DNA from: Cyanidioschyzon merolae | Taxonomy: Eukaryota | Direction: 5' to 3' (one strand) | NCBI GenBank assembly: GCA_000091205.1 | Contig: AP006491.2 | DNA: 64,000 nt | Shown here: in pieces, positions 10,061-42,868 of the stretch | Position numbering within the stretch: position 1 is the first letter of the stretch | How the letters are laid out: every line of letters starts with the position of its first letter | Notes under the pieces: model-generated | Seen by the model: only the letters and a program-made list of their open reading frames with translations | Told to the model about the DNA's origin: nothing | The model's database searches: none | Program-made: the position numbers and the translations under genes

Positions 10061-11218
10061 TTATCTTGAATCATAGAGAATCTTGCATTGTAAATTAAAA
10101 CAGACGGCTGCCGAGGGTCTCAGCGGTCGAAACTGCCCACAGACCGCACAGTGGCCCCTTCTCAGGAGCATGCGATCCGCACACTCCTCGATGACGGACT
10201 CGGGGATCTCACCTGCTCGCCGGGAAACGGTGCAGGGACGTTCCTCACCAAGCCGGAAGCGGTTGCTTTCGGCAAGTTCTGGCGGTACGTTTGTTCGTTT
10301 GCGGCTGCTACGTCGCAGTGGTGCCCCAGGCGGTGTGCGTTCAGCCGCCGCCAGTGCCGCAACCGGTGTGCAAGGTCGCTCGACAGCATCCGCGTCGGAA
10401 GTTATGGCTGCCGACTGCGCGATTCTACTAGTCCTGTTTTCAGATTCTTTCATAGGATCCGTATTCTTCATATGAGTGTCTGATGCGTTTCCAGCAGTAT
10501 TCTTTCGGCGACGACTCCTGCTCTGTTCAGAGGCCGAGGTGCCCGATCCGGTGCACGACGAGGCGTCGGAGCAGGAGCGGCGATGCGTGCAGCTCCTCTT
10601 CGACCGATCTTGCTCGAGGTCCTCACAAATCGTCGGATTGTCTAGTTTTCGTGCACTGCAACTCCGGTACGGCCGACCAGATTCTGAGCAACCTGAACTT
10701 GGCGTAGCGCTCCTTCGATCCTCGGCAACTAGCCGTCGGGGGCTTTGGGAAATGGTTTCCGTATTCATCTCATCCGTTGCGACCCGTCCAATTCCAGCCA
10801 CGGGGTTAATATGCATATTCTCGGGCGGTTGATCGGATTCTCTTTCCTTTCTAGACCGGGTGCGAGTCGCTGGACCTAGCGCCTTGGCCGCTGGCTTGGG
10901 CTGGGCTTTCGTCGTTGGTGCCCGCCGCCCGCCCTTGGTTTTCAAACCCTCGCGCGGTAAGTGCGAGATCTGCCTCAGGTTTGAACAAGGCCTGGGTGTG
11001 TTCTGCACGTACAACGCCTCGTCTTCAATGGGCGCGGCAACAGTCTCTTTCGTAAGCGTCTCACCGTGGCACTCTCGAGAAAAGTCGTCACCCTGCGTAG
11101 GTGTCGACTCTCGCAAGCAGTGCCAGCCTCTGCCAGCAAAAAGCTTCCCACTTCTCCGTCTTCTAGAGGAGCTTGCGGCCGACATGTACGCCACAAGCTG
11201 GTTCACGGGAAAATGCAA
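10061..11218 (-). CDS. Hypothetical Ser/Arg-rich low-complexity protein with a C-terminal CxxC...CxxxxC element
   Basis: 385-aa ORF, the longest at this locus. Strongly biased composition (S, R, T, P). No family signature recognised. Confidence 0.3.
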   Translation of the reverse strand: MHFPVNQLVAYMSAASSSRRRRSGKLFAGRGWHCLRESTPTQGDDFSRECHGETLTKETVAAPIEDEALYVQNTPRPCSNLRQISHLPREGLKTKGGRRAPTTKAQPKPAAKALGPATRTRSRKERESDQPPENMHINPVAGIGRVATDEMNTETISQSPRRLVAEDRRSATPSSGCSESGRPYRSCSARKLDNPTICEDLEQDRSKRSCTHRRSCSDASSCTGSGTSASEQSRSRRRKNTAGNASDTHMKNTDPMKESENRTSRIAQSAAITSDADAVERPCTPVAALAAAERTPPGAPLRRSSRKRTNVPPELAESNRFRLGEERPCTVSRRAGEIPESVIEECADRMLLRRGHCAVCGQFRPLRPSAAVCFNLQCKILYDSR

Positions 11219-12848: not shown

Positions 12849-14498
12849 ATGGGCATACTCCCGTTTTGCAACGCAACAGCTGCCGAAAGATTCTGTCAGT
12901 CGCCGAAGCGGACGCAGACCAAGCGAAGAACCCGCTACCAAGGCTCCCGCGAGCGCCGTCGGCGTGGTTACGTGTTCGCAAGCGGCAGTGTCTGCAGTCG
13001 CCGACGCTTTCTCAGTTACGTTTTCTCTTCTGCCGGTGTGCTACTAGGTCAGAAAGCTGCGAATGCTGGTGCAACAACGACTACGAAGGTGCCCAGTCTG
13101 AAGGATTTTCTGACCGAGCAAATGCGCGGTTTGCACCAGTTTCAGTTGCCAAATGGAGCGCGGTTCGTGGTGCTGGAGCGCTCCAACACACCGACTGTGA
13201 GCTTCATCAGCTTCGTGGACGCCGGAGCTGTAGACGAAACCGACGGTAAAACCGGGATGGCGCACTTTCTGGAACATCTCGCGTTCAAGGGCTCTCGTCA
13301 GATAGGCACGAATAATTGGGCGGCAGAGTCCCGTCTGCTCTGCGACTTGGATCGACTGTATGATAAATGGCATGCCGATCCTGAAGCAGTTCATGAGCAG
13401 ATCATGACACTTTCACGAGAGGCGGAAGCATTCGTGGATGAAAATGCTTTCGGTCGACTCGTACAGCGGAATGGCGGAATCGGCCTAAATGCAGCAACAG
13501 AAGCAGACACAACCCAATACTTTTACAACCTTCCTGCGAATAGAACGGAGTTGTGGTTTGCTCTAGAGTCTGAAAGATTCAGAGATCCAGTCTTTCGAGA
13601 ATTTGAGCGAGAACGTCGCGTTATCCTCGAAGAACGCCTCCTTCGAGTAGATAACGATGACGTGGGCAAGTTCCTCGAGGAGTTTCTCGAGGTCGCCTTT
13701 GAAAAGCATCCCTACAGACGCCCCGTGATCGGATACAAAGAGGATATACAACGGCTGGTTCCAGCTGATGTGCGTTCGTTCTTTCGCGAGTTCTATGTCC
13801 CTACTCGGCTTACATTTGTCATCGTCGGTGATGTGAAGCACCAGGTGATTCACGACCTGGCTGTTCGATATTTTGCAGATCTTCCTGGGACGGGCGCTTC
13901 TCGACGGCAGATACCCAGATATCCGCGGGAATATTCACCCCAGTCACCAAAGCACTTCCAGATAGACCTCGCCTCGAATCCCATGTGTCTGGTCGCTTAT
14001 CACGTCCCACCATTTCAGGACCCGGATACAGCGGCACTACGCGTGCTTTCAGATATGTTGGATGGCGGACGCCTCAGCCGCCTCTACAAGTTGTTCATCG
14101 AAACAGGCAAGGCATCTTCTGCAAACTTCAGTCTCGGGTTTCCCGGTGACAAGTACGTGAACCTGGGAATTTTTTCCGCATTGCCCATACCGGGACAGGA
14201 TATGCAACGGATCGTTGATGAATGGCACACGGCCGCAGCGCACCTGCAGAATCCAGCGAACATCACAGACAAGGAACTAGAGCGAGTTCGAAAGCGAGTC
14301 CGCGTCTCCCTGCTGAACGCCATTATGAACAACAACGAGATGGCTGGACTTTTGGGCAAATTTGCATTGATGAAAGGCGATGCTCGCGAACTATTTCGTT
14401 TTCTCGATCGGCTTGAGGCCGTAAGGCGCGAGGACGTTTCCAGAGTGGCAGCTTTGTATTTGAAACCAGAACACAGCATTACGGGTTTCATGGTTTGA
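12849..14498 (+). CDS. M16 (pitrilysin/insulinase-type) zinc metallopeptidase with an N-terminal targeting extension
   Basis: Inverted zinc-binding motif HxxEH present as 'GMAHFLEHLAFKGS', followed by an M16-type downstream Glu region. 549 aa, a typical size for one active plus one inactive M16 half. The roughly 90-aa N-terminal extension contains 'SRRRFLSYVFSSAGVLLGQKAANA', which has the shape of a twin-arginine signal (RR-x-F-L, a hydrophobic stretch, then AxA). Confidence 0.85.
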   Translation: MGILPFCNATAAERFCQSPKRTQTKRRTRYQGSRERRRRGYVFASGSVCSRRRFLSYVFSSAGVLLGQKAANAGATTTTKVPSLKDFLTEQMRGLHQFQLPNGARFVVLERSNTPTVSFISFVDAGAVDETDGKTGMAHFLEHLAFKGSRQIGTNNWAAESRLLCDLDRLYDKWHADPEAVHEQIMTLSREAEAFVDENAFGRLVQRNGGIGLNAATEADTTQYFYNLPANRTELWFALESERFRDPVFREFERERRVILEERLLRVDNDDVGKFLEEFLEVAFEKHPYRRPVIGYKEDIQRLVPADVRSFFREFYVPTRLTFVIVGDVKHQVIHDLAVRYFADLPGTGASRRQIPRYPREYSPQSPKHFQIDLASNPMCLVAYHVPPFQDPDTAALRVLSDMLDGGRLSRLYKLFIETGKASSANFSLGFPGDKYVNLGIFSALPIPGQDMQRIVDEWHTAAAHLQNPANITDKELERVRKRVRVSLLNAIMNNNEMAGLLGKFALMKGDARELFRFLDRLEAVRREDVSRVAALYLKPEHSITGFMV

Positions 14499-16946: not shown

Positions 16947-18275
16947 ATGCGTGTTTACTGTCTGACACGTTCCGAGCGTGAACTCAAAGAGACGGCGGTG
17001 GCTCGCACGATCCGGAACTTGGATCCTCAACTGCATCCCTTTGAGCGCGCAAGGGAGTACAAGCGAGCACTCAACTCAGCGAAGATTGAGCGTGCACTGG
17101 CGAGGCCGTTGGTTGCCGCTTACGAAGGCCATGCCGACGGTATTTATGCTATGAGTGTGCACCCCATCCGAATGGCCGAGGTCGCAACTGCGAGCGGCGA
17201 CGGTGAGGTACGTATATGGCGCTTATCGCAACGCAGCGCAGGTTCGGGAGAGAGTCTCGTGCAGAGCCGCCTCGGACACGCTGCCCCTGTATGTGGTCTT
17301 ACAGCAACGTGTGACGGACGTTTCCTGCTCTCAGCGAGCCAGGGAGACGCGGTGCAGTCCGTTGTCCAGCTGTGGCGCTGGCCTGTTGCAGACGGAGCGA
17401 GTACCTGGACTCCGCTATGTTCCTATAGACGCCTCCGGGGGGGTTTCGGCGACGTCAGCGCCTCGCCCAGTCAAGGCGCAGTTTTTACGACAGGTTCTGA
17501 GGACGGTTTGATTGAAGTTTGGGACTTCCATCGCTCAGAGCCTCTGACACGGTTTGTAAGTCATGCGGAACTCCCTGTCGCTGTGCGACGACTGCATTAC
17601 CATCCCTCAGAGCCGGCTTTGTTGGGTGCATGCCTTGCGAGTCGCGAGCTAGCAGTCTATGATACTCGTGAGAAAACCATGCTGACGCGCTACCGGCTGC
17701 CGATGCAGTGCAACGATTTATCTTGGAATCCGATGCGGCCTTTCCAGCTTGCCGTAGCCTGCGACAATCACGATGCGTACCTCTTCGATATTCGACGCAT
17801 GGATCGGCCGCAGCAGCTATATCATGGACACGTTGGTCCAGTGCTCAGCATCTGCTTCGCGCCAACTGGGCATGAATTGTGCACCGGCAGCTATGATAAT
17901 ACAGTGCGAATCTTTGACTGTAGAGAGAGCAAATCCCGCGATGTATACTTTACCAAACGAATGCAGCATGTGTTCCGAGTGCGATATACCAGCGACGCGC
18001 GCTTCATTCTCAGTGCTAGTGACGATGGCGATCTCCGAGTTTGGAAGACGAACGCCGCCGAACCGTTGCGGCAACTGCTGGTGCGCGAGAAACGGAGCTT
18101 GCAGTATGCGCAGAAACTGCGCGAACGCCACCGGTACCTGCCTCCAGTCCGTCGCATTTTGCACAGCCGATTCCTCCCTCGATACCTCCATAACGCAACG
18201 TTGCAGAAAAGAGAAGAGTTGAAAAGTCGTCAACGAAAAGAAACTCGGCGTCGATTGCACACTCGCCGCCGATAG
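16947..18275 (+). CDS. SOF1: U3 snoRNP / SSU processome WD40 protein Sof1 (DCAF13)
   Basis: The N-terminus 'RNLDPQLHPFERAREYKRALNSAKIERALARP...GHADGIYAMSVHP' matches the conserved Sof1 N-terminus 'RNLNPELHPFERAREYTKALNATKLERMFAKPF...GHRDGVY'. WD repeats throughout and a basic C-terminal Sof1 tail. 442 aa as a single exon. Confidence 0.9.
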   Translation: MRVYCLTRSERELKETAVARTIRNLDPQLHPFERAREYKRALNSAKIERALARPLVAAYEGHADGIYAMSVHPIRMAEVATASGDGEVRIWRLSQRSAGSGESLVQSRLGHAAPVCGLTATCDGRFLLSASQGDAVQSVVQLWRWPVADGASTWTPLCSYRRLRGGFGDVSASPSQGAVFTTGSEDGLIEVWDFHRSEPLTRFVSHAELPVAVRRLHYHPSEPALLGACLASRELAVYDTREKTMLTRYRLPMQCNDLSWNPMRPFQLAVACDNHDAYLFDIRRMDRPQQLYHGHVGPVLSICFAPTGHELCTGSYDNTVRIFDCRESKSRDVYFTKRMQHVFRVRYTSDARFILSASDDGDLRVWKTNAAEPLRQLLVREKRSLQYAQKLRERHRYLPPVRRILHSRFLPRYLHNATLQKREELKSRQRKETRRRLHTRRR

Positions 18276-21004: not shown

Positions 21005-22864
21005 ATGGACCACGGCGGTAGCGACACATGCGTGCACCCGTTCAGCGAAGTCGGTACATATATTGACAATAATGGATATTTGGGGAGCACCTTGATGACA
21101 ATGGCAGGCTTGGGCAACGCAGGTGCCTGCGCGCGTATACTGTTGGTCGAGTGGTGTGGTAACGAGTACGTTGTTCGGACGGCAACAGATAATAAGTGGG
21201 CGTCTCCCCCACGGGGCTTGTGCTTTGGTTTGAGTATGGAAGCGTCTGATGAGCGTACTCAGATCAAGAGGCGGCTTCAGGGGCGGACGACCTCTTTGTC
21301 ACGGGCGAAAGAACGAGCAACGTTTGAGCGAAAGCGCTCCGGTCCGGGGAACGTTCAGCGCGATTCTGCAGTGAGGGGAGAAAGATATTCGAACTATTCC
21401 GACTTTATACGAGGGCTGCACAAAATGCTTAACCTCGAAGAGTCTGATAACCACATAGAAGAACGCACGCTGCGTTTGTTTTGGAGACGCACGGAAGGCG
21501 TGTTCGCCAGTGTCAGGGATATTGTGGTAAAGGTGCTTCAAAATCGCTCTCAGCCGCCGATCAACGAGACCGTTCTGCGGTTTGTGCTTTTTCCTGATCT
21601 TCCGCGAGACGTTGTCTGCAAGATTCCTTTAGAGATAATAGAATACGTTGCCGCACTCGTGGAAACGAGTGGCTTTCGGTTTCTTCAGAACATTCGAGTA
21701 GGTCACCTGACGGACGAACGCGTACAGTTAAGTAAACGCTTGGAGCACATCCAAAAGATTGCCTCACGCGAAAGCGTTACAAGCCACGGTGACCTGCAGA
21801 GCGATGGGGTCCGCACAACGAGCGCGTCGTCTCCCCTGCAACCCGAAGAGAAGCCGCGTCTGTTTTTGCCCCTCGTCTCGGAGGACGTACGCGACAAGTT
21901 ACCTGTGTTTGTGAAAGATTTCATCGTGAAGAATTTGCCTCGCCGTATGAGTATCGCATTCGATGATACGATTGCACTCTGGCTACTGAACATCGAAGCC
22001 CCAGAACAAATGTGTTTGCTGTTGCAGCGGGTTCTTGATTACCTCGAGCGGAACGAGGACAAGATCCCGAAGCGTTGCGGCATGACCGAGAGGATTTTAT
22101 ACGCGCTCGAGGCCACATCTGAGGAGACCATTGAAAACATACTATCACAGCCTGGAGACGCATTTTACCCTACCGCGCGTCTCCAGTGGTTTCGGCCACG
22201 GCCTGTCACCGATGAGGAGTGGATCCAGTGGTGCGAAATCCTTGACCGCGACTGCGACACTTGGCTTCGAGCGTTATGTCAAGAATTAGATCCAGCGAAT
22301 GAAGTGACCGAGGATGAGCTTCGGGAGTATTTCGAGAGTTTGCAGCCACCGTTTCTAGCAGAAGCCCTGCGGAATGAATCGGATCGAACCATCGCACTGC
22401 AAGCTGGTAACAGCGTACCGGCCACTGCGGCATTAGCTGGAGAATCTTGGTCATGCGTCTTGCACGATGATGAAAACCGCCCCATAGAGGTCCTTGTACG
22501 GGCCCCATTCTTGGATGCCGGGCGGCTTGATGAGGAGCGAGCCCGGTTTCCGCAAATGTTGTTCGCTCAAGGTCGGGAACACGTCGACAGGGACTGGCTC
22601 ATTCGTATTTTCGGCGCTGCATCAGTGGTCTTTGTACTGATGCCCACACGGGATGCGGTGAAAGAGTCCAGATCAAGGTTCGCTGATCTGTTCGACGAGC
22701 TAACCTCAACAGATTCAGCGCTGAAGGTGCCGATTCCGCAACGAGCTCGTATGCTTCTAATTGTGCCCGCCAATGAACGCGTACTGACTCTGCATCCGGA
22801 CCTACGCCGTTACGCCCCGGGGCCCCAAGTCCTTCTTGCTTCTCGGGTACGCATTGAGACATAG
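21005..22864 (+). CDS. Hypothetical protein (619-aa ORF; the true start may lie downstream of 21005)
   Basis: Long uninterrupted ORF with coding-like composition. No family motif recognised. The first about 80 codons lie close to the end of the upstream repeat, so an internal Met such as 'MEASDERTQ' may be the real start. Confidence 0.5.
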   Translation: MDHGGSDTCVHPFSEVGTYIDNNGYLGSTLMTMAGLGNAGACARILLVEWCGNEYVVRTATDNKWASPPRGLCFGLSMEASDERTQIKRRLQGRTTSLSRAKERATFERKRSGPGNVQRDSAVRGERYSNYSDFIRGLHKMLNLEESDNHIEERTLRLFWRRTEGVFASVRDIVVKVLQNRSQPPINETVLRFVLFPDLPRDVVCKIPLEIIEYVAALVETSGFRFLQNIRVGHLTDERVQLSKRLEHIQKIASRESVTSHGDLQSDGVRTTSASSPLQPEEKPRLFLPLVSEDVRDKLPVFVKDFIVKNLPRRMSIAFDDTIALWLLNIEAPEQMCLLLQRVLDYLERNEDKIPKRCGMTERILYALEATSEETIENILSQPGDAFYPTARLQWFRPRPVTDEEWIQWCEILDRDCDTWLRALCQELDPANEVTEDELREYFESLQPPFLAEALRNESDRTIALQAGNSVPATAALAGESWSCVLHDDENRPIEVLVRAPFLDAGRLDEERARFPQMLFAQGREHVDRDWLIRIFGAASVVFVLMPTRDAVKESRSRFADLFDELTSTDSALKVPIPQRARMLLIVPANERVLTLHPDLRRYAPGPQVLLASRVRIET

Positions 22865-23031: not shown

Positions 23032-23748
23032 TCAATGTGTGTTGTCCTCAGGTTCGGGAAGCAGGTCCTTGCTGATGCCGTCCGGCTTCCTGCGAAAGGA
23101 AGACGAGATCGGTGCTCCATGGTCTCCGCTACCTTGACCCTGGTGGTTTGCACGCGCTCCCTGATTGTGACCCTCACTGGCGCCCGACATGGGGACTGGT
23201 TTATTCAGAATCAGCACGGAACCCTTGAAGGGACTCACAGCAACTTCAAAGTGCGTGCGAACGACGCCTTTCGCGTCCGTCCACTGACGACTCTGAAGTC
23301 TGCCTTCAACGTAAACTTGATAACCCTTGCGACAGGCGTTTTGTATGATCTCTCCCAACTTTGAATCATAGATTGCAATATTATGCCACTGGGTCAACAC
23401 CTGGGAACTTGCGTTTTGACTCGAGGTAAACTCTTTCGTGGCCAGCGGAAACAACGTCACCGTACTTCCGTCTGCTGTGAGTTGTCTCGTGACGGGGTCC
23501 CGACCGACGTGCCCAACGAGCAAAACACGATTAACGCTCGCTACTGAAGCCCGAGCTTGAGCCACACCAGAGTTCATTTGCGTCGCCGACGTTTTGAAGC
23601 GCTCCCGAGCGACTGTCGTGTTGGCGCCTTCATCACCCTCAGCAAAAGGATTTATATACTCCGGACCTGACGTTACAGAGCGCAAGGGTATGCCCCGCAA
23701 CGAAAGTGCAGTTCGCGCCTTCCATAGCGCACGAATCGAGGCCTGCAT
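23032..23748 (-). CDS. Bacterial-type single-stranded DNA-binding protein (organellar SSB) with an N-terminal extension
   Basis: OB-fold SSB signature: 'RVLLVGHVGRDPVTRQLTADGSTVTLFPLATKE...WHNIAIYDSKLGEIIQNACRKGYQVYVEGRLQSRQWTDAKGVVRTHFEV'. This is the RecG-wedge/SSB pattern with W and Y residues at the usual positions. Confidence 0.8.
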   Translation of the reverse strand: MQASIRALWKARTALSLRGIPLRSVTSGPEYINPFAEGDEGANTTVARERFKTSATQMNSGVAQARASVASVNRVLLVGHVGRDPVTRQLTADGSTVTLFPLATKEFTSSQNASSQVLTQWHNIAIYDSKLGEIIQNACRKGYQVYVEGRLQSRQWTDAKGVVRTHFEVAVSPFKGSVLILNKPVPMSGASEGHNQGARANHQGQGSGDHGAPISSSFRRKPDGISKDLLPEPEDNTH

Positions 23749-25342: not shown

Positions 25343-27325
25343 TTGATGCTGGTCCCTTTGACTAAGTCGGTATGTTTCGTCAGCAGCTGCAATAAAGCTG
25401 GTTCCCTGCTGGTCAGTGAATCCCGCAAAGGCACTTGTGTGAGAAAGCGGCAGCACGCAGCAAACTCGGGTTTTACGCAGCGAAGGAACTGCCTTCAGCT
25501 CTGTCTCAGTTGGCAGGATGAGTTGCTTCGGAGTTGTCTGAACGCACTTTCTTGGCTGCGAGGGCAAAAGGATGCCGAGCGGAACGCTGCAACTTGGGCA
25601 CGCCCGGCGTTCGCTGAAGGCTGGTTCGCCACCAACGTGTTCCAGGTGCGCCAGAGCCAGACGGATCCTGAAGTTGCCTCTTTCCTCTGGTCGAGCAAGG
25701 GGCTTGCTGATGAATATGCGAGTGTTGTCGGCACTGCGCCCGTTTCCAAGGACGGGCGATACTTTATCGTCAGACTAGACGTTAGTGGTGAGTGCTTCCG
25801 AAGCCACGTCCTTCCAGGCCAGTTTATTCAGATAGAGAGCCCTGTGGATACCGGCCGGCGGTTTCTAGCGACGATAGCATCACCTCCACGAAACGCTGCT
25901 GGTCAGTTTGAGATTCTGCTCGACAGAGATAAGCTCGCTGGGCGCTGGTTCCGAACCCGTATGGAGGCACCACGAACGGGCGACAAAGTTCGGATCTCGA
26001 AAGCACTTGGGCGCGGCATTGCGCTGCCTCACGGCCCGATACCTGCGGAGCTTTTCCTTTTCGCTGACCATTTTCATGGCTTTGCAGCAGCAAACTCGCT
26101 TTTCGAATGGGATGACTGGCGTCGTTGCAGCGGTGAAGGGACAGTCCGCAAGTGTCAAGTTCGAGCCGTGTTCTTCGTAGATCGTTTGGAGAATGTGCCA
26201 TTCAGTTTCCGTTTTCCATTATGGATCGCATACGGCATTCAGATGTGCTTGCAGCAGCGGGACGCGGACTTAGAGGATTTAGTTCAAAAGCGGATACTAG
26301 ATGTCGGTAAGCCGGAGAGCACAGCAGCTCTGATTTGTGTCGGAAATAGTGCATTTGAGCGACAAATTCATACGCTTCTTCGTGGGCGAGGGCTCAGAGA
26401 GTCTGCCATTGCCGAAATCACCCAACGCACGATGATGGCGGATATGTCTCTGCTGAACCAGACGCAGATCAGGAACGTTGGCGCATCGAATATCGCTACC
26501 GCTAACGAGAGTGCTGATCGGTACGATGCGAGGTTCTCGAGCCGCCCCCACGCTCCAGGAGAGTATGCGGCGACCCCGCATGCGTGGCAAGTCCGGGTAT
26601 GGGGCGCAGCTACACAACCCCAGAGTCAGTCGCAAACATTTCGTATATGGTCTCGCCCCGAAGATCTCAACCCCGCTTCTGGTGGTGACGATGATCACAA
26701 CGCGGTAGCGTCGACGTCATCAAACTCTGCGAGGCACTTTGACGGAGTCGAGCATAACGGAGCGGCTGTTGAAGATGAAGTAACTGATGGTTATTACGAA
26801 GAAGAAGAGAATGATGATGATGATGATGAATGGGAGCGATGGTTCGCTGCGAATACCGAGTCCTGGTCTGTCCGTTTCGACGACGATATCTGGAATAGCT
26901 ATTGGAAAAGTTGGGAGCAGGAGCAAGCTCGTTGGACTGCTGCCGGCGGTGACTGGACAGAGTATGCTCAGGACAGCTGGCGTGGCAACGCTAATAGTTA
27001 TCAATCTAATACGAATCGAAGGGATGATTGGGGCCGCGGTGCATATGGCGGGAACGATGGAAACACCAGGGGTCATCAAGGCGGGAGCGATCGCGGGTTT
27101 GCAGCGACCTTTGGCAGCATGGATCTGTATGCTGTTCTGGGGGTCTCCAGAACAGCCTCACATGCGGAAATCAAGAAGGCTTATCGCAAACTAGCCAGAG
27201 AATGGCATCCGGATATGCACAGGAACGAGAACGAGGAGGCCAAGCGACGAATGCAGCGCATTGTATTCGCCTACTCAGTCTTGCGTGATGAGTCGAGCCG
27301 TCGTCGCTATGATCTCGGCATATAG
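25343..27325 (+). CDS. Fusion protein: FNR-like FAD/NAD(P)-binding oxidoreductase domain, an acidic Trp-rich linker, and a C-terminal DnaJ (J) domain
   Basis: Ferredoxin-NADP reductase-family motifs 'PGQFIQIESP', 'RRFLATIASPP' (RxYS-type FAD-binding) and 'GQFEILL'. The linker is acidic and Trp-rich: 'EEEENDDDDDEWERWFAANTESWSVRFDDDIWNSYWKSWEQEQARWTAAGGDWTEY'. The C-terminus is a canonical J-domain, 'DLYAVLGVSRTASHAEIKKAYRKLAREWHPDMHRNENEEAKRRMQRIVFAYSVLRDESSRRRYD', including the HPD tripeptide. Confidence 0.75.
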   Translation: MMLVPLTKSVCFVSSCNKAGSLLVSESRKGTCVRKRQHAANSGFTQRRNCLQLCLSWQDELLRSCLNALSWLRGQKDAERNAATWARPAFAEGWFATNVFQVRQSQTDPEVASFLWSSKGLADEYASVVGTAPVSKDGRYFIVRLDVSGECFRSHVLPGQFIQIESPVDTGRRFLATIASPPRNAAGQFEILLDRDKLAGRWFRTRMEAPRTGDKVRISKALGRGIALPHGPIPAELFLFADHFHGFAAANSLFEWDDWRRCSGEGTVRKCQVRAVFFVDRLENVPFSFRFPLWIAYGIQMCLQQRDADLEDLVQKRILDVGKPESTAALICVGNSAFERQIHTLLRGRGLRESAIAEITQRTMMADMSLLNQTQIRNVGASNIATANESADRYDARFSSRPHAPGEYAATPHAWQVRVWGAATQPQSQSQTFRIWSRPEDLNPASGGDDDHNAVASTSSNSARHFDGVEHNGAAVEDEVTDGYYEEEENDDDDDEWERWFAANTESWSVRFDDDIWNSYWKSWEQEQARWTAAGGDWTEYAQDSWRGNANSYQSNTNRRDDWGRGAYGGNDGNTRGHQGGSDRGFAATFGSMDLYAVLGVSRTASHAEIKKAYRKLAREWHPDMHRNENEEAKRRMQRIVFAYSVLRDESSRRRYDLGI

Positions 27326-29467: not shown

Positions 29468-30259
29468 TCAGCTAGAGACCCCCTCGGCTTCCGAGCCCGC
29501 CCATAAGTTTTCCAGTTGATAACGCTCCCGCCCATCAGGTGTCATTATGTGGATCACAAAGCGACCAAGGTCGAGCAGCATCCAGTCATCCGAATCACGG
29601 CCTTCGATGAAGGGTTCCGCACCCTCTACAAAAACCCCTCGTTCGCGCAGACGCTTTTGCATCGTGTCCGCCAAGTGTCGAACATGATTCAACGTCATTC
29701 CAGTCGCAACGATGAAATTATCCACGAATGTCGCTTTGTCAGATATGTCGAGAACAACTACATTGGAAGCGCTCTCCTTTTCGAGCCACATGGCAACCTC
29801 CGCGACAGACGGGACGTCTCCGCAGACTTCCAGAGGCCGCAACTCTGTTGTTTGTGATTCAGCCTGCTTCTCTGGCTCATTTGGTGCAGACGCAGACACT
29901 TTAGAGGTCGTAGAAAAGGCTATTGAGCAATGCGACGCAAACCAAGATGCACAGAGACACTGTCTGGCAGTAGACTCGGCAAGACTATTTACCCGTTGTC
30001 GCTCGACGCCTCGGGTTCTGTAAACATTTCTGTGATAGCCTCTGTCCGGTCGAATGCTGTCCTGCCCTTTGTGGTGGTTACCGTGCGGCAGAATAGAACT
30101 TACAGCTACTCGGACGCGGAGAGGCACTCGATGGGGTAACCCAACGGGCAACCAAACGAGTCCAAGGTTATTTCGACTTTGCGAAATAAAGCAGCGACTC
30201 ACTCTGCTTAAGAGCATACTGAGACATGAAGGCAGCGAGATCCTCGATCTATGTGTCAA
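29468..30259 (-). CDS. Ribosomal silencing factor RsfS / Iojap-like protein (organellar) with a long N-terminal extension
   Basis: C-terminal 'VVVLDISDKATFVDNFIVATGMTLNHVRHLADTMQKRLRERGVFVEGAEPFIEGRDSDDWMLLDLGRFVIHIMTPDGRERYQLENLWAG' matches the RsfS/DUF143 consensus 'D.FVIa.G.S.rq..Ai.d.v......g....EG.....W.L.D.G..VVH.f....R..Y.LE.LW'. Confidence 0.8.
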   Translation of the reverse strand: MTHRSRISLPSCLSMLLSRVSRCFISQSRNNLGLVWLPVGLPHRVPLRVRVAVSSILPHGNHHKGQDSIRPDRGYHRNVYRTRGVERQRVNSLAESTARQCLCASWFASHCSIAFSTTSKVSASAPNEPEKQAESQTTELRPLEVCGDVPSVAEVAMWLEKESASNVVVLDISDKATFVDNFIVATGMTLNHVRHLADTMQKRLRERGVFVEGAEPFIEGRDSDDWMLLDLGRFVIHIMTPDGRERYQLENLWAGSEAEGVSS

Positions 30260-32407: not shown

Positions 32408-34096
32408 TTGGGTACTGAAAACAAGGATCGGCTGCCTTCCCAGATGAATGCGCTGTCTGCCCAAGCCTCTGTGCTCGTAACAAGAGCAGCACTTGTGCAC
32501 AAGAACACGGTCGCTCAAGCTGAAATTTTCGGGAGAGCATACCTCTCACTGCCTCGGATCTTTTCCCGGGCGGTGGCGAAAGCCGTTGAACTCCATATCG
32601 CCTCCGAGCAAGAAATGCGTTTTCTTTTACTGCTTCTTCTCGCATATGTTTTCGCATTTGTGTATCGGTGTCTGCCATCGGCTAGATGGCGCCACCTGCT
32701 ATCGGTCTACGGTGGAGCGCTTCTGGGTCAGAATTTTTGCGGTGCAACGGGTTGGCTCTATCCACTGACGGCAGCGCTCGTCAGTTTTCAGCTAATGCAC
32801 TTGATGGGACCATCCCGAGCAGCCCCGATCGTCTTCGCGTTCAATCTCATATTCCTATTCTCTCTCCATCTTCATCGACAACTGACGGATCCTTTTGGAT
32901 GGCACCTCGATGCAACATTCATGCAAATGATCGTGACCCAAAAGCTGTCCTCCCTGGCCTGGAGTGTTTCGGACGGTTCACCCAAGTCACTCTCGACGGG
33001 CTTGTCCCGTGCCAGGGCAGAATTTGCGGTGCGGGAGATTCCGCTCTTGTTAGAAACGCTAGCTTACGCCTTCTTTCCGCCCTGTTTTCTAATGGGACCA
33101 GCCTTCGAGTACATGGACTGGTATCGCAATGCGCACGATTTGGCGCCAGCACTTCAGCTCAACAATGCAGGCAGCAATGAATCTGGTGCCCAAGTGCCAG
33201 AGATGCGGCGCCCGAATATACTTGAGCTGTCTGTTGCTTCTCTCGCCCGTTTCCTTCAGGCGGCGCTGTTACTGCTTTGTTTCCAACTCGCGAATATGAA
33301 ATTACCGAGTGATCTTCTTGCTGACCAGAACTGGCTTCTCCGAAACCGTGCCGAAGGATTATGGCGGTTGTACCTGCGAATCTGGCTCTCTCTGCTGGGA
33401 CTCCGTTGCAAGTACTACTTTGGATTCAAAATATCCGAGGGTGCTGCAATCTTGTCTGGAATTGGTTTCAGTGGTTACGTGGACTCGGTGGAGCCGAACT
33501 CTGGTGATCCTGGGACTCGTCCACCGGCTATAGTAAGAACCCGAAAACCGCGACCCCGCTTCGATCGAGTCCGCACCATTGATATCCTGGCATTCGAGCT
33601 GGCTGGTAGTCTGAAAGACGCAGCGGCAGCGTGGAACAAGCCCACAAACACCTGGCTGAGACGTTGTGTTTATGAGCGCTTACCTCGCAAATATCAGCTC
33701 GATCTTTACGGGACTTACGTTGTATCGGCGATCTGGCATGGCATAGCTCCAGGTTATTATATGTTTTTTGTTACAAGTGCATTCTTGACAAGCCTTGAGC
33801 GGGAATGGCGGCGATTGTTCCGAAGCCTCGGCTTGGCTCAAAAGCTTCAGAGAAATCGCCTTTCTGCCGCAGTGGTACGAGTCATCACCTTGGTATGGAC
33901 GAGCGCAACGCTGAACTATTTCATTATATCATTCGTGATGCTTACTCGAGATCGCACCTTGCGCGTTTGGTCAGCGCTCTCATACTGGGGCCACAAAATG
34001 CTTCTGCTGGATCTGCTTGTTTTATTGGTGGCGCGGATCCTTGTCTCTTGCCTGGGCGCAAGCGCTCGAAAAGAAAGATCACAGTTGCGTGCATGA
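32408..34096 (+). CDS. MBOAT-family membrane-bound O-acyltransferase (lysophospholipid acyltransferase, LPLAT/ALE1-like)
   Basis: Multi-pass hydrophobic 562-aa protein. It carries the MBOAT catalytic His motif 'VVSAIWHGIAPGYYMFFVTSAF', in which the invariant His lies in 'WHG..PGYY', and a conserved Asn/Asp region upstream. Confidence 0.85.
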   Translation: MGTENKDRLPSQMNALSAQASVLVTRAALVHKNTVAQAEIFGRAYLSLPRIFSRAVAKAVELHIASEQEMRFLLLLLLAYVFAFVYRCLPSARWRHLLSVYGGALLGQNFCGATGWLYPLTAALVSFQLMHLMGPSRAAPIVFAFNLIFLFSLHLHRQLTDPFGWHLDATFMQMIVTQKLSSLAWSVSDGSPKSLSTGLSRARAEFAVREIPLLLETLAYAFFPPCFLMGPAFEYMDWYRNAHDLAPALQLNNAGSNESGAQVPEMRRPNILELSVASLARFLQAALLLLCFQLANMKLPSDLLADQNWLLRNRAEGLWRLYLRIWLSLLGLRCKYYFGFKISEGAAILSGIGFSGYVDSVEPNSGDPGTRPPAIVRTRKPRPRFDRVRTIDILAFELAGSLKDAAAAWNKPTNTWLRRCVYERLPRKYQLDLYGTYVVSAIWHGIAPGYYMFFVTSAFLTSLEREWRRLFRSLGLAQKLQRNRLSAAVVRVITLVWTSATLNYFIISFVMLTRDRTLRVWSALSYWGHKMLLLDLLVLLVARILVSCLGASARKERSQLRA

Positions 34097-40951: not shown

Positions 40952-42868
40952 ATGTCTAACCATACGCTTCAGTTTTTGACTACAACGGAGACGAGTTTTG
41001 TAAAGGGTTCGTTTCCTAGAGACGGTCGCGGGCTTCGGCTGCAGCGCCGAGGGCATCGCGCACTCTTGCGCCACCCACTGCAACCAGTCAAGGGCGCCTT
41101 ATTCTTAAAAGCAGAGGGGCTAAGTGAGACGCCCGCGTCCGGGGTGACGAACCATAGAGTCCGTTCCGCTGCGCTGGTCGGCAGTCAACCCGGTGCACCG
41201 GACTGGATCAAGCGTACGGCGGCGAGAGCGATGTTGCGTGCAGTCCGCTTCAAAGACGAGGACTTCTTCAAGCCACTTATTACAGTATCGTGCACATACA
41301 CCAACGCGACGCCATGTAATGACCACATGATAGAGTTGGCGCGCATCATTGCGGACCGTATTGAGAGCCGCGGAGGCAAACCGTTGCTGCACGGCACCCC
41401 GGTGGTCTCCGATGGAGAGACGATGGGCACCCCGGGCATGCGCTACTCTCTCGTTAGCCGCGATCTCATTGCGGACTGTATCGAGTGTCAGCACGAGGCC
41501 TACATGGCAGATGGTTTGATCACACTCGGTGGATGTGACAAGACGATCCCTGGAGCATTAATGCCACTGCTGCGAAATGATTCGATTGGTGTTTTCCTTT
41601 ATGGAGGATCCATTCTACCAGGTGGGCCTGAAAAAAACCTGGACGTCATTTCTGCCTTCGAGGCCATTGGTGCGCGCTCTGCAAACCGTATAACTGATGA
41701 GCAGCTCTTGGAAGTGGAAAAGCATGCCTGCCCCGGAGCTGGGGCGTGTGCCGGCGCATTCACAGCGAACACCATGGCCACGATTGCGGTTGCTCTTGGA
41801 CTAGCCGTGCCATACTCTGCTGGTCATGTGGCAGCGACCTATGAAGGAAGCGTTTCCGATAACAAAAAACAAGATTGCGTCGATACGGTGGATGCGCTCT
41901 TCACGTGTCTGGAGCGAGGTATCACTGCGCGGCAGATTGCAACACGACAAGCGTTTGAGAACGCGATTGTTGTCGCAATGGCCTTGGGTGGCAGCACGAA
42001 TGCCGTGCTTCACGTGCTGGCTCTCGCACATGAAGCGCAAATCCCGCTCACAATTGACGACTTCCATGAGATTGGTTCCAGAGTTCCTCTCCTGGGGCAG
42101 TTTCGACCATTCAGCAAGTATGTTATGGCAGACCTTGATCGAATTGGCGGGGTACCCGTGCTCATGAAACATCTGCTCGCACACGGCTATTTGCATGGCG
42201 AATGCCTGACCTGCACGGGGAAAACACTAGCAGAGAACCTAGCACATGTTCCAAATGATTTGCCGCCAAATCAAGATGTCATACTTCCGGTTACTAGACC
42301 GTACGCTCCTCCTGGACGCCACATCCTCGTTCTGAAAGGCAATTTAGCGCCGGAAGGAGCCGTCATTAAACTTAGCGGGAAGGAAATTCGGCGACACCAA
42401 GGTCCCGCCAGGGTATTCGATTCGGAATCTTCGGCCCTCGACGCTATCCTGGCAGGCCAGATTCGCAAAGGCGATGTTTTGGTTATTCGCTATGAAGGCC
42501 CGGCAGGTGGCCCCGGCTGTCCGGAGATGCTGTCACCGAGCTCAGCGCTCGTCGGCCAGGGCCTGGGCTCAGATGTGGCGCTGGTCACCGACGGCCGCTT
42601 CAGCGGAGGGAGTCACGGGATCATGATCGGACACGTCTGTCCAGAGGCATACGTTGGCGGACCCATCGCCTTGCTCCAGGAGGGCGACCAAGTCGTCATC
42701 GATATTGATGCCCGCTCGATTGATGTAGTCGGCCTCACGTCTACAGAATGGGATCGGCGCCGAGCCAGCTGGAAACGGATTCAGAAGCCGGCCACTGGCC
42801 TGCTCGCTAAGTACCGCTCCCTAGTACAACCAGCCAGCCGTGGAGCAATTACGATCTGTCAGACTTAA
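40952..42868 (+). CDS. ILVD: Dihydroxy-acid dehydratase (IlvD/EDD family) with an N-terminal organellar targeting extension of about 100 aa
   Basis: '[32 protein letters not shown]', '[25 protein letters not shown]', '[26 protein letters not shown]', '[13 protein letters not shown]', '[51 protein letters not shown]'. All conserved IlvD blocks are present in the expected order. Confidence 0.9.

Follow-up and report, generated by a model that had tools for sequence, protein, structure and literature searches.

The window, i.e., the whole 64,000-nucleotide stretch of Cyanidioschyzon merolae DNA analysed here, contains on its plus strand a complete coding sequence at 25346..27325 (659 amino acids and a stop codon). 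Its product is identical to the C. merolae 10D protein BAM80021.1 / XP_005536307.1 (UniProt M1UR21). The biological start is the ATG at 25346. A preliminary description of this DNA gave the product 660 residues; the open reading frame at 25343–27325 is present, and the difference is the adjoining TTG at 25343, which is the start set by the ORF lister. All motif strings quoted in that description were found in the frame. All features reported below lie on the same strand and are given in the numbering of the 659-residue protein. Antisense overlapping reading frames of 80–135 aa were set aside, as a long coding region rich in GC produces such frames mechanically. Neighboring genes encode SSB, RsfS, an MBOAT protein and an M16 peptidase; we judged this neighborhood, in a eukaryotic nucleus, uninformative on function.

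A single gene found throughout red algae

The protein joins a ferredoxin-NADP reductase (FNR)-like domain, a Trp-rich segment and a C-terminal J-domain. This architecture is that of a real single gene and no assembly artefact, since about 30 sequence clusters share it, several of them from transcriptomes. The frame is unbroken across 659 codons, the architecture recurs in independent genomes and metagenomes, and both ends are present on three complete transcriptome-derived reading frames (Bangiopsis MMETSP, Timspurckia MMETSP and an Agarophyton TSA entry). Moreover, four independent metagenome or read-assembly contigs carry near-identical copies. That an error of assembly or a frameshift merged two adjoining genes is hence extremely improbable. 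We found nothing in favor of it; the poorly conserved residues 376–489 could, superficially, be taken for an intergenic spacer.

A profile of the N-terminal domain gave 40 matches among 1.84 billion representatives. When 13 of the long matches (475–742 aa) were scanned, all but P0019 had a C-terminal DnaJ domain. Named members come from Cyanidioschyzon, Cyanidiococcus, Cyanidium, Galdieria, Pyropia, Hildenbrandia, Agarophyton, Bangiopsis, Timspurckia and Porphyridium, all of them rhodophytes. The search for orthologs with the same fusion, proposed in the preliminary description, thus yielded a family that, to judge by its named members, is limited to red algae. The same description did not recognize the architecture as a known one, and this agrees with our literature search by accession, annotation phrase and architecture terms, which found no paper on the C. 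merolae protein, none describing an FNR-like domain fused to a C-terminal J-domain, and none in which an FNRL-derived (see below) or Trp-rich domain serves as J-protein specificity module. A published catalogue of chloroplast J-proteins covers the green lineage, without red algae (PMC3720927).

J-domain and Trp-rich segment

The J-domain (27122..27313, residues 593–656) matched Pfam PF00226 with an E-value of 1.9e-22 and 79.5 bits against a gathering cutoff of 27.8, and it matched J-domains in the PDB with E-values down to 1e-15. Its HPD tripeptide (27206..27214, residues 621–623) is invariant in the red-algal family (25/25 homologs), so that a C-terminal J-domain with intact HPD motif, as first described, is present. 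Pfam searches of the C. merolae protein found no match to PF00684 or PF01556, and the NCBIfam full-length DnaJ models scored far below their cutoffs. Because the Gly/Phe region of classes A and B and the DnaJ zinc-finger and C-terminal domains are lacking, we assign the protein, by its domain content, to the class C (type III) J-proteins.

Within this class the C-terminal placement of the J-domain, initially considered unusual, is normal. DNAJC3/p58IPK (2y4t), DjlA and the chloroplast proteins DJC31 and DJC62, which combine TPR repeats with a C-terminal J-domain (PMC3720927), likewise carry one C-terminal J-domain behind an unrelated specificity module. It is the modules that differ, being FNRL-derived and Trp-rich domains in the red-algal protein. 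Nor is the fusion of a J-domain with a redox-family module new in itself. Precedents are ERdj5/DNAJC10 (3apo), with thioredoxin domains, and the clade of DnaJ-Fer, Chlamydomonas CDJ3-5 and Arabidopsis DJC76, with a 4Fe-4S ferredoxin domain; DnaJ-Fer and CDJ3-5 have 4Fe-4S clusters, and CDJ3-5 act with plastid HSP70B (PMC3564930; bioRxiv 10.1101/2025.08.22.671721). In these precedents, however, the J-domain is N-terminal and the redox modules are cofactor- or Cys-active, whereas in the C. merolae protein the J-domain is C-terminal and the module looks catalytically degenerate. Homology to them is confined to the J-domain.

The region between the FNR-like domain and the J-domain had been described as an acidic linker with periodic tryptophans. 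It is acidic (net charge −22 for residues 430–590) and rich in Trp (9 in 52 residues, P about 2e-8 at 1.3% background), but the conserved part is not a linker. This part (26813..27046, residues 490–567) has seven Trp/Asn positions that are invariant over 25 red-algal homologs with about 25% identity, among them W496, W499, N503, W507, W516 and W523. Between C. merolae and Cyanidiococcus it is 73% identical, compared with 62% for the FNR-like domain. As it is conserved at least as well as the FNR-like domain, the segment is, by this measure, a domain in its own right. A variable acidic linker does precede it (26471..26812, residues 376–489), with 24–26% identity within Cyanidiales; the linker string 'FRIWSRPEDL' is weakly conserved, and its counterpart in the alignment of other red algae is their first Trp helix. 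Between the Trp-rich segment and the J-domain, alignment and composition mark a short flexible stretch rich in Gly, Asn and Ser (27047..27121), which is far longer and rich in Ser, Gly, Tyr and Trp in other red algae. A full-length AF2 model from a three-sequence alignment (pLDDT 35) served for rough secondary structure alone, and the Trp-rich segment is predicted with low confidence to be helical. Its profile matched nothing among PDB sequences at E ≤ 5, i.e., no solved relative.

Fold and altered cofactor motifs of the FNR-like domain

The FNR-like domain (25685..26470, residues 114–375) has the two-lobed FNR fold, in which a six-stranded antiparallel barrel is followed by a Rossmann-like α/β lobe. 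Secondary structure and column statistics place the barrel, of the FAD-binding type, at 25712..25996 (residues 123–217), where PGQF (157–160), TIASPP (176–181) and GD.V.IS.ALG.G are kept. The second lobe, of the NAD(P)-binding type, lies at 26048..26416 (residues 235–357) and has degenerate nucleotide motifs. Pfam gave no match for the module. Nevertheless, its N-terminal FNR-type fold as originally read from the sequence was confirmed: hhalign aligned the red-algal domain with the FNRL family over 221 columns in both lobes (probability 99.9%, E 5e-35), and profile searches reached genuine NAD_binding_1 proteins and, among PDB sequences, 9nez_C at 5e-16 and 1a8p at 1e-9. A profile built from red-algal sequences only matched FNRs in the PDB solely in the FAD-barrel lobe and detected no similarity of the second lobe to solved FNRs. 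A BLASTP alignment with a stand-alone FNRL also covered the first lobe only.

Among the matches listed, the closest stand-alone relatives are Viridiplantae proteins named 'fruit protein pKIWI502' or FAD-binding FR-type domain proteins, which we take to be At1g15140/FNRL. No named red-algal stand-alone FNRL was among the 120 matches listed; the search gave 41 more. Three candidates for such a protein (P0185, P0187 and P0188) retain FATGSGISP unaltered, with a Phe in the N-terminus, and lie on a gene-dense contig of 60% GC; going only by its GC content and gene density, our guess is that it comes from a green picoalga.

The red-algal domain and FNRL are homologous across both lobes but only 20–30% identical. 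They have in common PGQF(V/I)Q, (A/T)IASPP, GD.V.S.VMG.G, W..GV.VVP and the loop before β-2. FNRL stands alone, has about 290 aa and terminates in NF, whereas the C. merolae protein has 659 aa and two further conserved modules; the red-algal domain also has an extra Asp and a 6–7-residue insertion and is fused to the Trp-rich domain and the J-domain. FNRL is a stromal plastid protein by experiment (PMC11500984; PMC10190055), and the red-algal protein is predicted to be plastid-localized. Loss of FNRL leads to isoxaben tolerance and constitutive mitochondrial retrograde signaling (PMC11500984). The alignments suggest that the N-terminal domain descends from a plastid FNRL-type flavoenzyme.

We compared the cofactor motifs by column counts in 42 FNRL and 23 red-algal sequences. 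The family-invariant motifs of FNRL, i.e., FATGSGISP, YYGxR, LCG..M and the terminal NF, are all missing from the red-algal domain. T-G-S-G-I-S-P (40–42/42 per position) is replaced by D-[C/H/A]-[P/A/V]-Q-G-F-A-A, in C. merolae D-H-F-H-G-F-A-A, so that the first Gly and the Pro of GxGxxP, kept in 42/42 FNRL, are exchanged in 23/23 red-algal sequences. YYG (Gly in 42/42) and the Arg behind it have become YY[S/A]xP. LCGxKxM (Gly and Met in 42/42) has become C-V-[A/S]..T, in which the Cys is present in 18/23 and Ala or Ser replaces the Gly after an inserted Val. The GxxS/T loop for the FAD pyrophosphate, G(S/T)(T/I)A in FNRL, is two residues shorter and reads 'xDP', or 'AGRW' in C. merolae. In place of the C-terminal NF the chain runs on as a helix. 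These replacements are lineage-specific, yet themselves conserved. The remodeled former NADP(H) site (26060..26155, residues 239–270), FADHFHGFAAANSLFEWDDWRRCSGEGTVRKC, stands in place of FA-TGSGISP of FNRL, contains the red-specific 6–7-residue insertion and has D241, A247, G263, G265 and R268 invariant in red algae.

Bacterial-type ferredoxin/flavodoxin-NADP+ reductases (FPR; R. capsulatus 2bgi, A. vinelandii 1a8p, N. gonorrhoeae 5tr9) differ from the C. merolae protein at the same sites. Their RxYS motif (RAYSIAS in 1a8p) corresponds to FLATIAS, GPLTS to the shortened loop, and S-TGTGLAP to ADHFHGFAA. The flavin-binding motif RxYS(I/L)AS is thus missing here, with Arg and Tyr gone and Ser replaced by Thr. 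This absence alone is not decisive, because stand-alone FNRL also has neither the Arg nor the Tyr. As FNRL reportedly binds FAD nonetheless (work of Koskela and colleagues), loss of the motif predicts only imperfectly, and a flavin might still be bound in the red-algal domain.

The description as flavoprotein oxidoreductase could not be upheld in its original form, given that the NADP(H) motifs and GxxS/T are replaced and that the red-only profile matches the barrel half alone. Most likely, judging from these motifs, the red-algal domain is not a working redox enzyme and belongs to a specialized plastid co-chaperone instead. A rival reading, in line with the preliminary description, is that the N-terminal domain works as a flavin-dependent oxidoreductase, which may use a donor different from NADPH, and that the J-domain couples its redox chemistry or redox state to Hsp70, e.g., when a redox partner, Fe-S clusters or flavin are handled. 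This seems to us unlikely, though far from negligible. The fold is whole in both lobes, the barrel motifs PGQF, IASPP and GD.V.S.VMG.G are kept, and J-proteins with redox cofactors exist (CDJ3-5/DnaJ-Fer). The relatives of the domain are true enzymes, FNRL being called an NADPH-dependent chloroplast oxidoreductase in the title of Koskela et al. 2018 (cited in PMC10190055). The five invariant residues also show that the pocket is under strong constraint. However, all NADP(H) determinants without variation in the 42 FNRL sequences are replaced, the FAD-phosphate loop has been lost or exchanged, the terminal aromatic residue is gone, and the second lobe has no detectable similarity to solved FNRs or, in pairwise comparison, to FNRL. 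The conserved remodeled site would fit a new protein-binding patch and equally a new small-molecule ligand.

Predicted location and proposed role

About the first 113 residues (25346..25684) form a poorly conserved presequence, predicted to be a plastid transit peptide. It has a net charge of +6 in its first 60 residues and a Phe in 'CFV', F11, that is nearly invariant and aligns with the red-algal family consensus M..AFV..P. These features agree with the organelle-type presequence noted earlier. Presequences of rhodophyte plastid proteins carry an F-based motif at the extreme N-terminus (PMC7038456), and the family consensus points to plastid targeting. The call is weaker for C. merolae than for the family, as its Phe is at position 11 and not at 3–5. 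This position, and a presequence that is rich in Arg and Lys with few acidic residues, as in mitochondrial presequences, would also suit the same co-chaperone residing in mitochondria, or in both organelles, and recruiting mitochondrial Hsp70. We consider this rather improbable, in view of the near-invariant Phe of the consensus, which is the rhodophyte plastid signal (PMC7038456), and of the plastid stromal proteins that are the closest relatives of the N-terminal domain.

We propose, with a probability of roughly 0.55, that the gene encodes a plastid-targeted class C (type III) J-domain co-chaperone, nuclear-encoded and present throughout red algae, with an FNRL-derived pseudo-enzyme and a Trp-rich domain as selecting modules. 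Specificity of Hsp70 is supplied by J-domain proteins. The presequence would direct import into the plastid and then be cleaved off. The HPD loop of the C-terminal J-domain would mediate docking on plastid Hsp70 (DnaK) in its ATP-bound state and elicit ATP hydrolysis, upon which Hsp70 would clamp cargo held by the remainder of the protein. Choice of the partner or site would come from the two lineage-specific modules. The FNRL-derived domain, which kept the FNR fold and lost the NADP(H) and FAD-phosphate motifs, probably acts as a pseudo-enzyme binding surface with its newly conserved patch at the former NADP(H) site. The second module would be the acidic, Trp-striped helical segment, followed by the flexible low-complexity tether. 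If so, the family clearly illustrates how an enzyme fold was co-opted to serve, probably, as a pseudo-enzyme module. As it is conserved from Cyanidiales to Florideophyceae, it would mark a red-algal-specific task of Hsp70 in the plastid, its predicted location. C. merolae is genetically tractable and this task is hence open to direct test.

There is a small chance that the conserved remodeled pocket still binds a flavin, another nucleotide or a metabolite and serves as a sensor of redox or metabolic state that controls the time and place of plastid Hsp70 recruitment. This might occur, for instance, at the inner-envelope import machinery or at sites of thylakoid biogenesis. To our knowledge, red algae do not have the green-lineage co-chaperone Tic40 at these plastid sites. 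If such a sensor exists, Rosetta-stone logic would extend from the fusion to plants, where FNRL would work with the chloroplast Hsp70 system. The fusion offers a testable guilt-by-association hint on the role of plant FNRL.

The J-protein gene and its red-algal family

The J-protein is encoded by a single uninterrupted ORF on the plus strand (25343–27325). ORF listing had placed its start at a TTG (25343), the next codon being an ATG (25346), and the 660 residues of the preliminary description hence became the annotated 659, whereas its single ORF stood. The 659-residue product matches BAM80021.1 / XP_005536307.1 / UniProt M1UR21 of C. merolae strain 10D residue for residue, an entry annotated as "similar to protein with DnaJ domain", which marks the window as nuclear DNA from this red alga. 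The cluster representative P0001 (ENA, JGI and Logan contigs, loci L001–L003) differs at two positions, S65N and S406T, natural C. merolae-like populations therefore carry close alleles of the gene.

DnaJ (PF00226; E 1.9e-22, 79.5 bits) was the sole Pfam domain in the protein and lies at its extreme C-terminus, as had been described; NCBIfam and PDB sequence searches also matched it, with E-values down to 1e-15. The HPD tripeptide is intact at 27206–27214 (+) in the coding sequence. Domain searches found neither a zinc finger nor a DnaJ C-terminal domain, we therefore assign the protein to the class-C J-proteins. A C-terminal J-domain, initially regarded as unusual, is common in this class, and DNAJC3 and DjlA were among the NCBIfam and PDB matches.

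In a word-indexed search, the C. merolae cluster was co-linear end to end with two proteins, one from Cyanidiococcus yangmingshanensis at 54% identity and one from a third Cyanidiales genome at 56%. An exhaustive HMM search with the N-domain profile gave 40 matches in 1.84 billion representatives, about 30 of them 475–790 residues long. All organism-named matches were rhodophyte, i.e., Cyanidium, Galdieria, Pyropia, Hildenbrandia, Agarophyton, Bangiopsis, Timspurckia and Porphyridium. The proposed search for orthologues with the same fusion thus found homologues across red algae: a C-terminal DnaJ domain was present in 12 of the 13 long proteins scanned, the exception being P0019. Three family members are complete transcriptome-derived ORFs. 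Together with the recurring architecture these dispel the worry that two adjacent genes had been joined, and make an artefactual fusion extremely improbable. Public databases label the family proteins hypothetical or "J domain-containing", and no publication on an FNR-like, Trp-rich and J-domain architecture was found in the literature searched. We conclude that this is a real gene for a lineage-wide, uncharacterised red-algal J-protein, probably with a pseudo-FNR module.

An FNR fold with replaced cofactor motifs

Pfam gave no match in the N-domain. The tail of the exhaustive search consisted of 240–320-residue proteins with Pfam NAD_binding_1, and a second database search placed these in the Viridiplantae "fruit protein pKIWI502" / FAD-binding FR-type family, which we take to be that of Arabidopsis At1g15140, the plastid FNR-like oxidoreductase FNRL. 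When the profiles of 23 red-algal N-domains and of 31 FNRL sequences were aligned to each other, the probability was 99.9% (E 5e-35, 221 columns). The AF2 model of residues 104–385, built from a 65-sequence alignment (pLDDT 89.3, pTM 0.87), comprises a six-stranded barrel and a five-stranded α/β lobe, and Foldseek matched it to bacterial-type FNRs (probability 1.0, TM 0.62–0.66). The N-domain is therefore an FNR fold and a divergent offshoot of FNRL. In this second search, a profile search with the mixed alignment A4, P0003 was listed but P0001 and P0002 were not, though partly in the query, so that absences from its listing are weakly informative.

We compared motif columns between 42 FNRL and 23 red-algal sequences. 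At the NADP pyrophosphate site, FNRL FA-T-G-S-G-I-S-P (40–42/42 per position) is replaced by FA-D-[C/H/A]-[P/A/V]-Q-G-F-A-A, with an Asp inserted and the first Gly and the Pro lost. FNRL YYG (G 42/42) plus R in the 2'-phosphate region corresponds to YY[S/A]xP, and LCGxKxM (G and M 42/42) in the nicotinamide region to C-V-[A/S]..T. The FAD-phosphate loop, G(S/T)(T/I)A in FNRL, is an 'xDP' two residues shorter ('AGRW' in C. merolae), and where FNRL ends in NF the red-algal domain runs on as a long helix. The barrel-lobe structural motifs PGQF, IASPP and GD.V.S.VMG.G are kept. Consistent with this, the red-only profile matched solved FNRs through the barrel lobe only; BLASTP against one stand-alone FNRL was likewise confined to this lobe. 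The FNR-type fold proposed earlier was thus confirmed, whereas its standing as an oxidoreductase was not. As the N-domain departs from FNRL in invariant motifs and in architecture, we do not class it among the FNRL enzymes.

At the replaced site, D241, A247, G263, G265 and R268 are invariant in the red-algal family, and a red-specific insertion, (F/W)(R/K)AxSG, is conserved, which argues against free decay. From this sequence pattern we read that the site may have acquired a new function. The Arg and Tyr that are canonical in RxYS are missing from FNRL too, yet Koskela et al. 2018 are said to have found that it still holds FAD; by analogy, the red-algal domain may bind flavin. With these features on one side and the lost nucleotide motifs on the other, we consider a still-active or ligand-sensing flavoprotein possible but rather unlikely. 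The protein would gain interest if its pocket turned out to sense redox state or a metabolite, or if plant FNRL could be better understood through the fusion.

A stand-alone FNRL with intact FATGSGISP and a Phe-containing N-terminus was seen on the gene-dense eukaryotic contig L006 (6383–7249, +; about 60% GC). This protein may be relevant to the question of whether a canonical FNRL persists in non-green algae.

The Trp-rich segment and the presequence

Identity between C. merolae and Cyanidiococcus is 27% in the presequence (residues 1–105), 62% in the FNR-like domain (114–375), 24% in a variable acidic linker (376–489), 73% in the Trp-rich segment (490–567) and 83% in the J-domain (591–659). 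Being more conserved than the FNR-like domain, the Trp-rich segment is a conserved module and not the mere linker it was taken for. Trp content of the region is 7–12.6% in 25/25 aligned family members, in which W435, W496, W499, N503, W507, W516 and W523 are invariant. In a low-confidence model, the Trp spacing (i, i+3/4, i+7, i+11) would fall on one face of helices. A Trp-rich profile found no relative among solved structures (PDB sequences).

Residues 1–60 carry a net charge of +6 and almost no acidic residues, and M..AFV..P, its Phe nearly invariant, brings the N-termini of the family into register. These features bear out the suggested targeting peptide, with the plastid as its predicted destination. 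In rhodophyte plastid presequences, the extreme N-terminus bears an F-based motif (PMC7038456). The Phe of the C. merolae protein is at position 11, which somewhat weakens the plastid call for this species. A plastid location would fit that of FNRL, a stromal protein (PMC11500984; PMC10190055). A mitochondrial or dual location appears improbable.

Proposed function and gene neighbourhood

We favour, at a probability of roughly 0.55 for the whole, a plastid class-C co-chaperone with a probably non-catalytic pseudo-FNR module in a binding role. After import, the HPD of the J-domain would engage ATP-bound plastid Hsp70 and trigger hydrolysis; dnaK is encoded by red-algal plastid genomes. The FNRL-derived and Trp-rich domains would supply client or location, and the low-complexity stretch before the J-domain could be a flexible tether. 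The protein would work in the same way as those other class-C J-proteins that have a dedicated specificity module, and the redox-module J-proteins DnaJ-Fer / CDJ3-5 and ERdj5 are alike in concept.

Ordinary nuclear genes without evident link to the J-protein in the window encode a WD40/Sof1 protein (16947–18275, +), an MBOAT acyltransferase (32408–34096, +) and dihydroxy-acid dehydratase (ILVD; 40952–42868, +). Two long ORFs, at 10061–11218 (−, 385 aa) and 21005–22864 (+, 619 aa), had no Pfam match. An RsfS/iojap ribosomal silencing factor homologue (29468–30259, −; PF02410, E 8e-25) has a 150-residue N-terminal extension and is presumably organelle-targeted.

Upstream of the J-protein gene and divergently transcribed lies an organellar-type single-strand DNA-binding protein (SSB) with a long N-terminal extension (23032–23748, −; PF00436, E 4e-25), a pairing kept in Cyanidiococcus (L004) and the third Cyanidiales genome (L005). 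Upstream of SSB, the related loci have a 478–589-aa ORF comparable by position and orientation to an unmatched window ORF. An M16 peptidase directly follows the J-protein gene in L004 (7704–9359, −) and L005 (7349–8776, −); the only one among the window ORFs scanned is about 11 kb upstream and on the other strand (12849–14498, +), which would indicate local rearrangement if these peptidases are orthologous.
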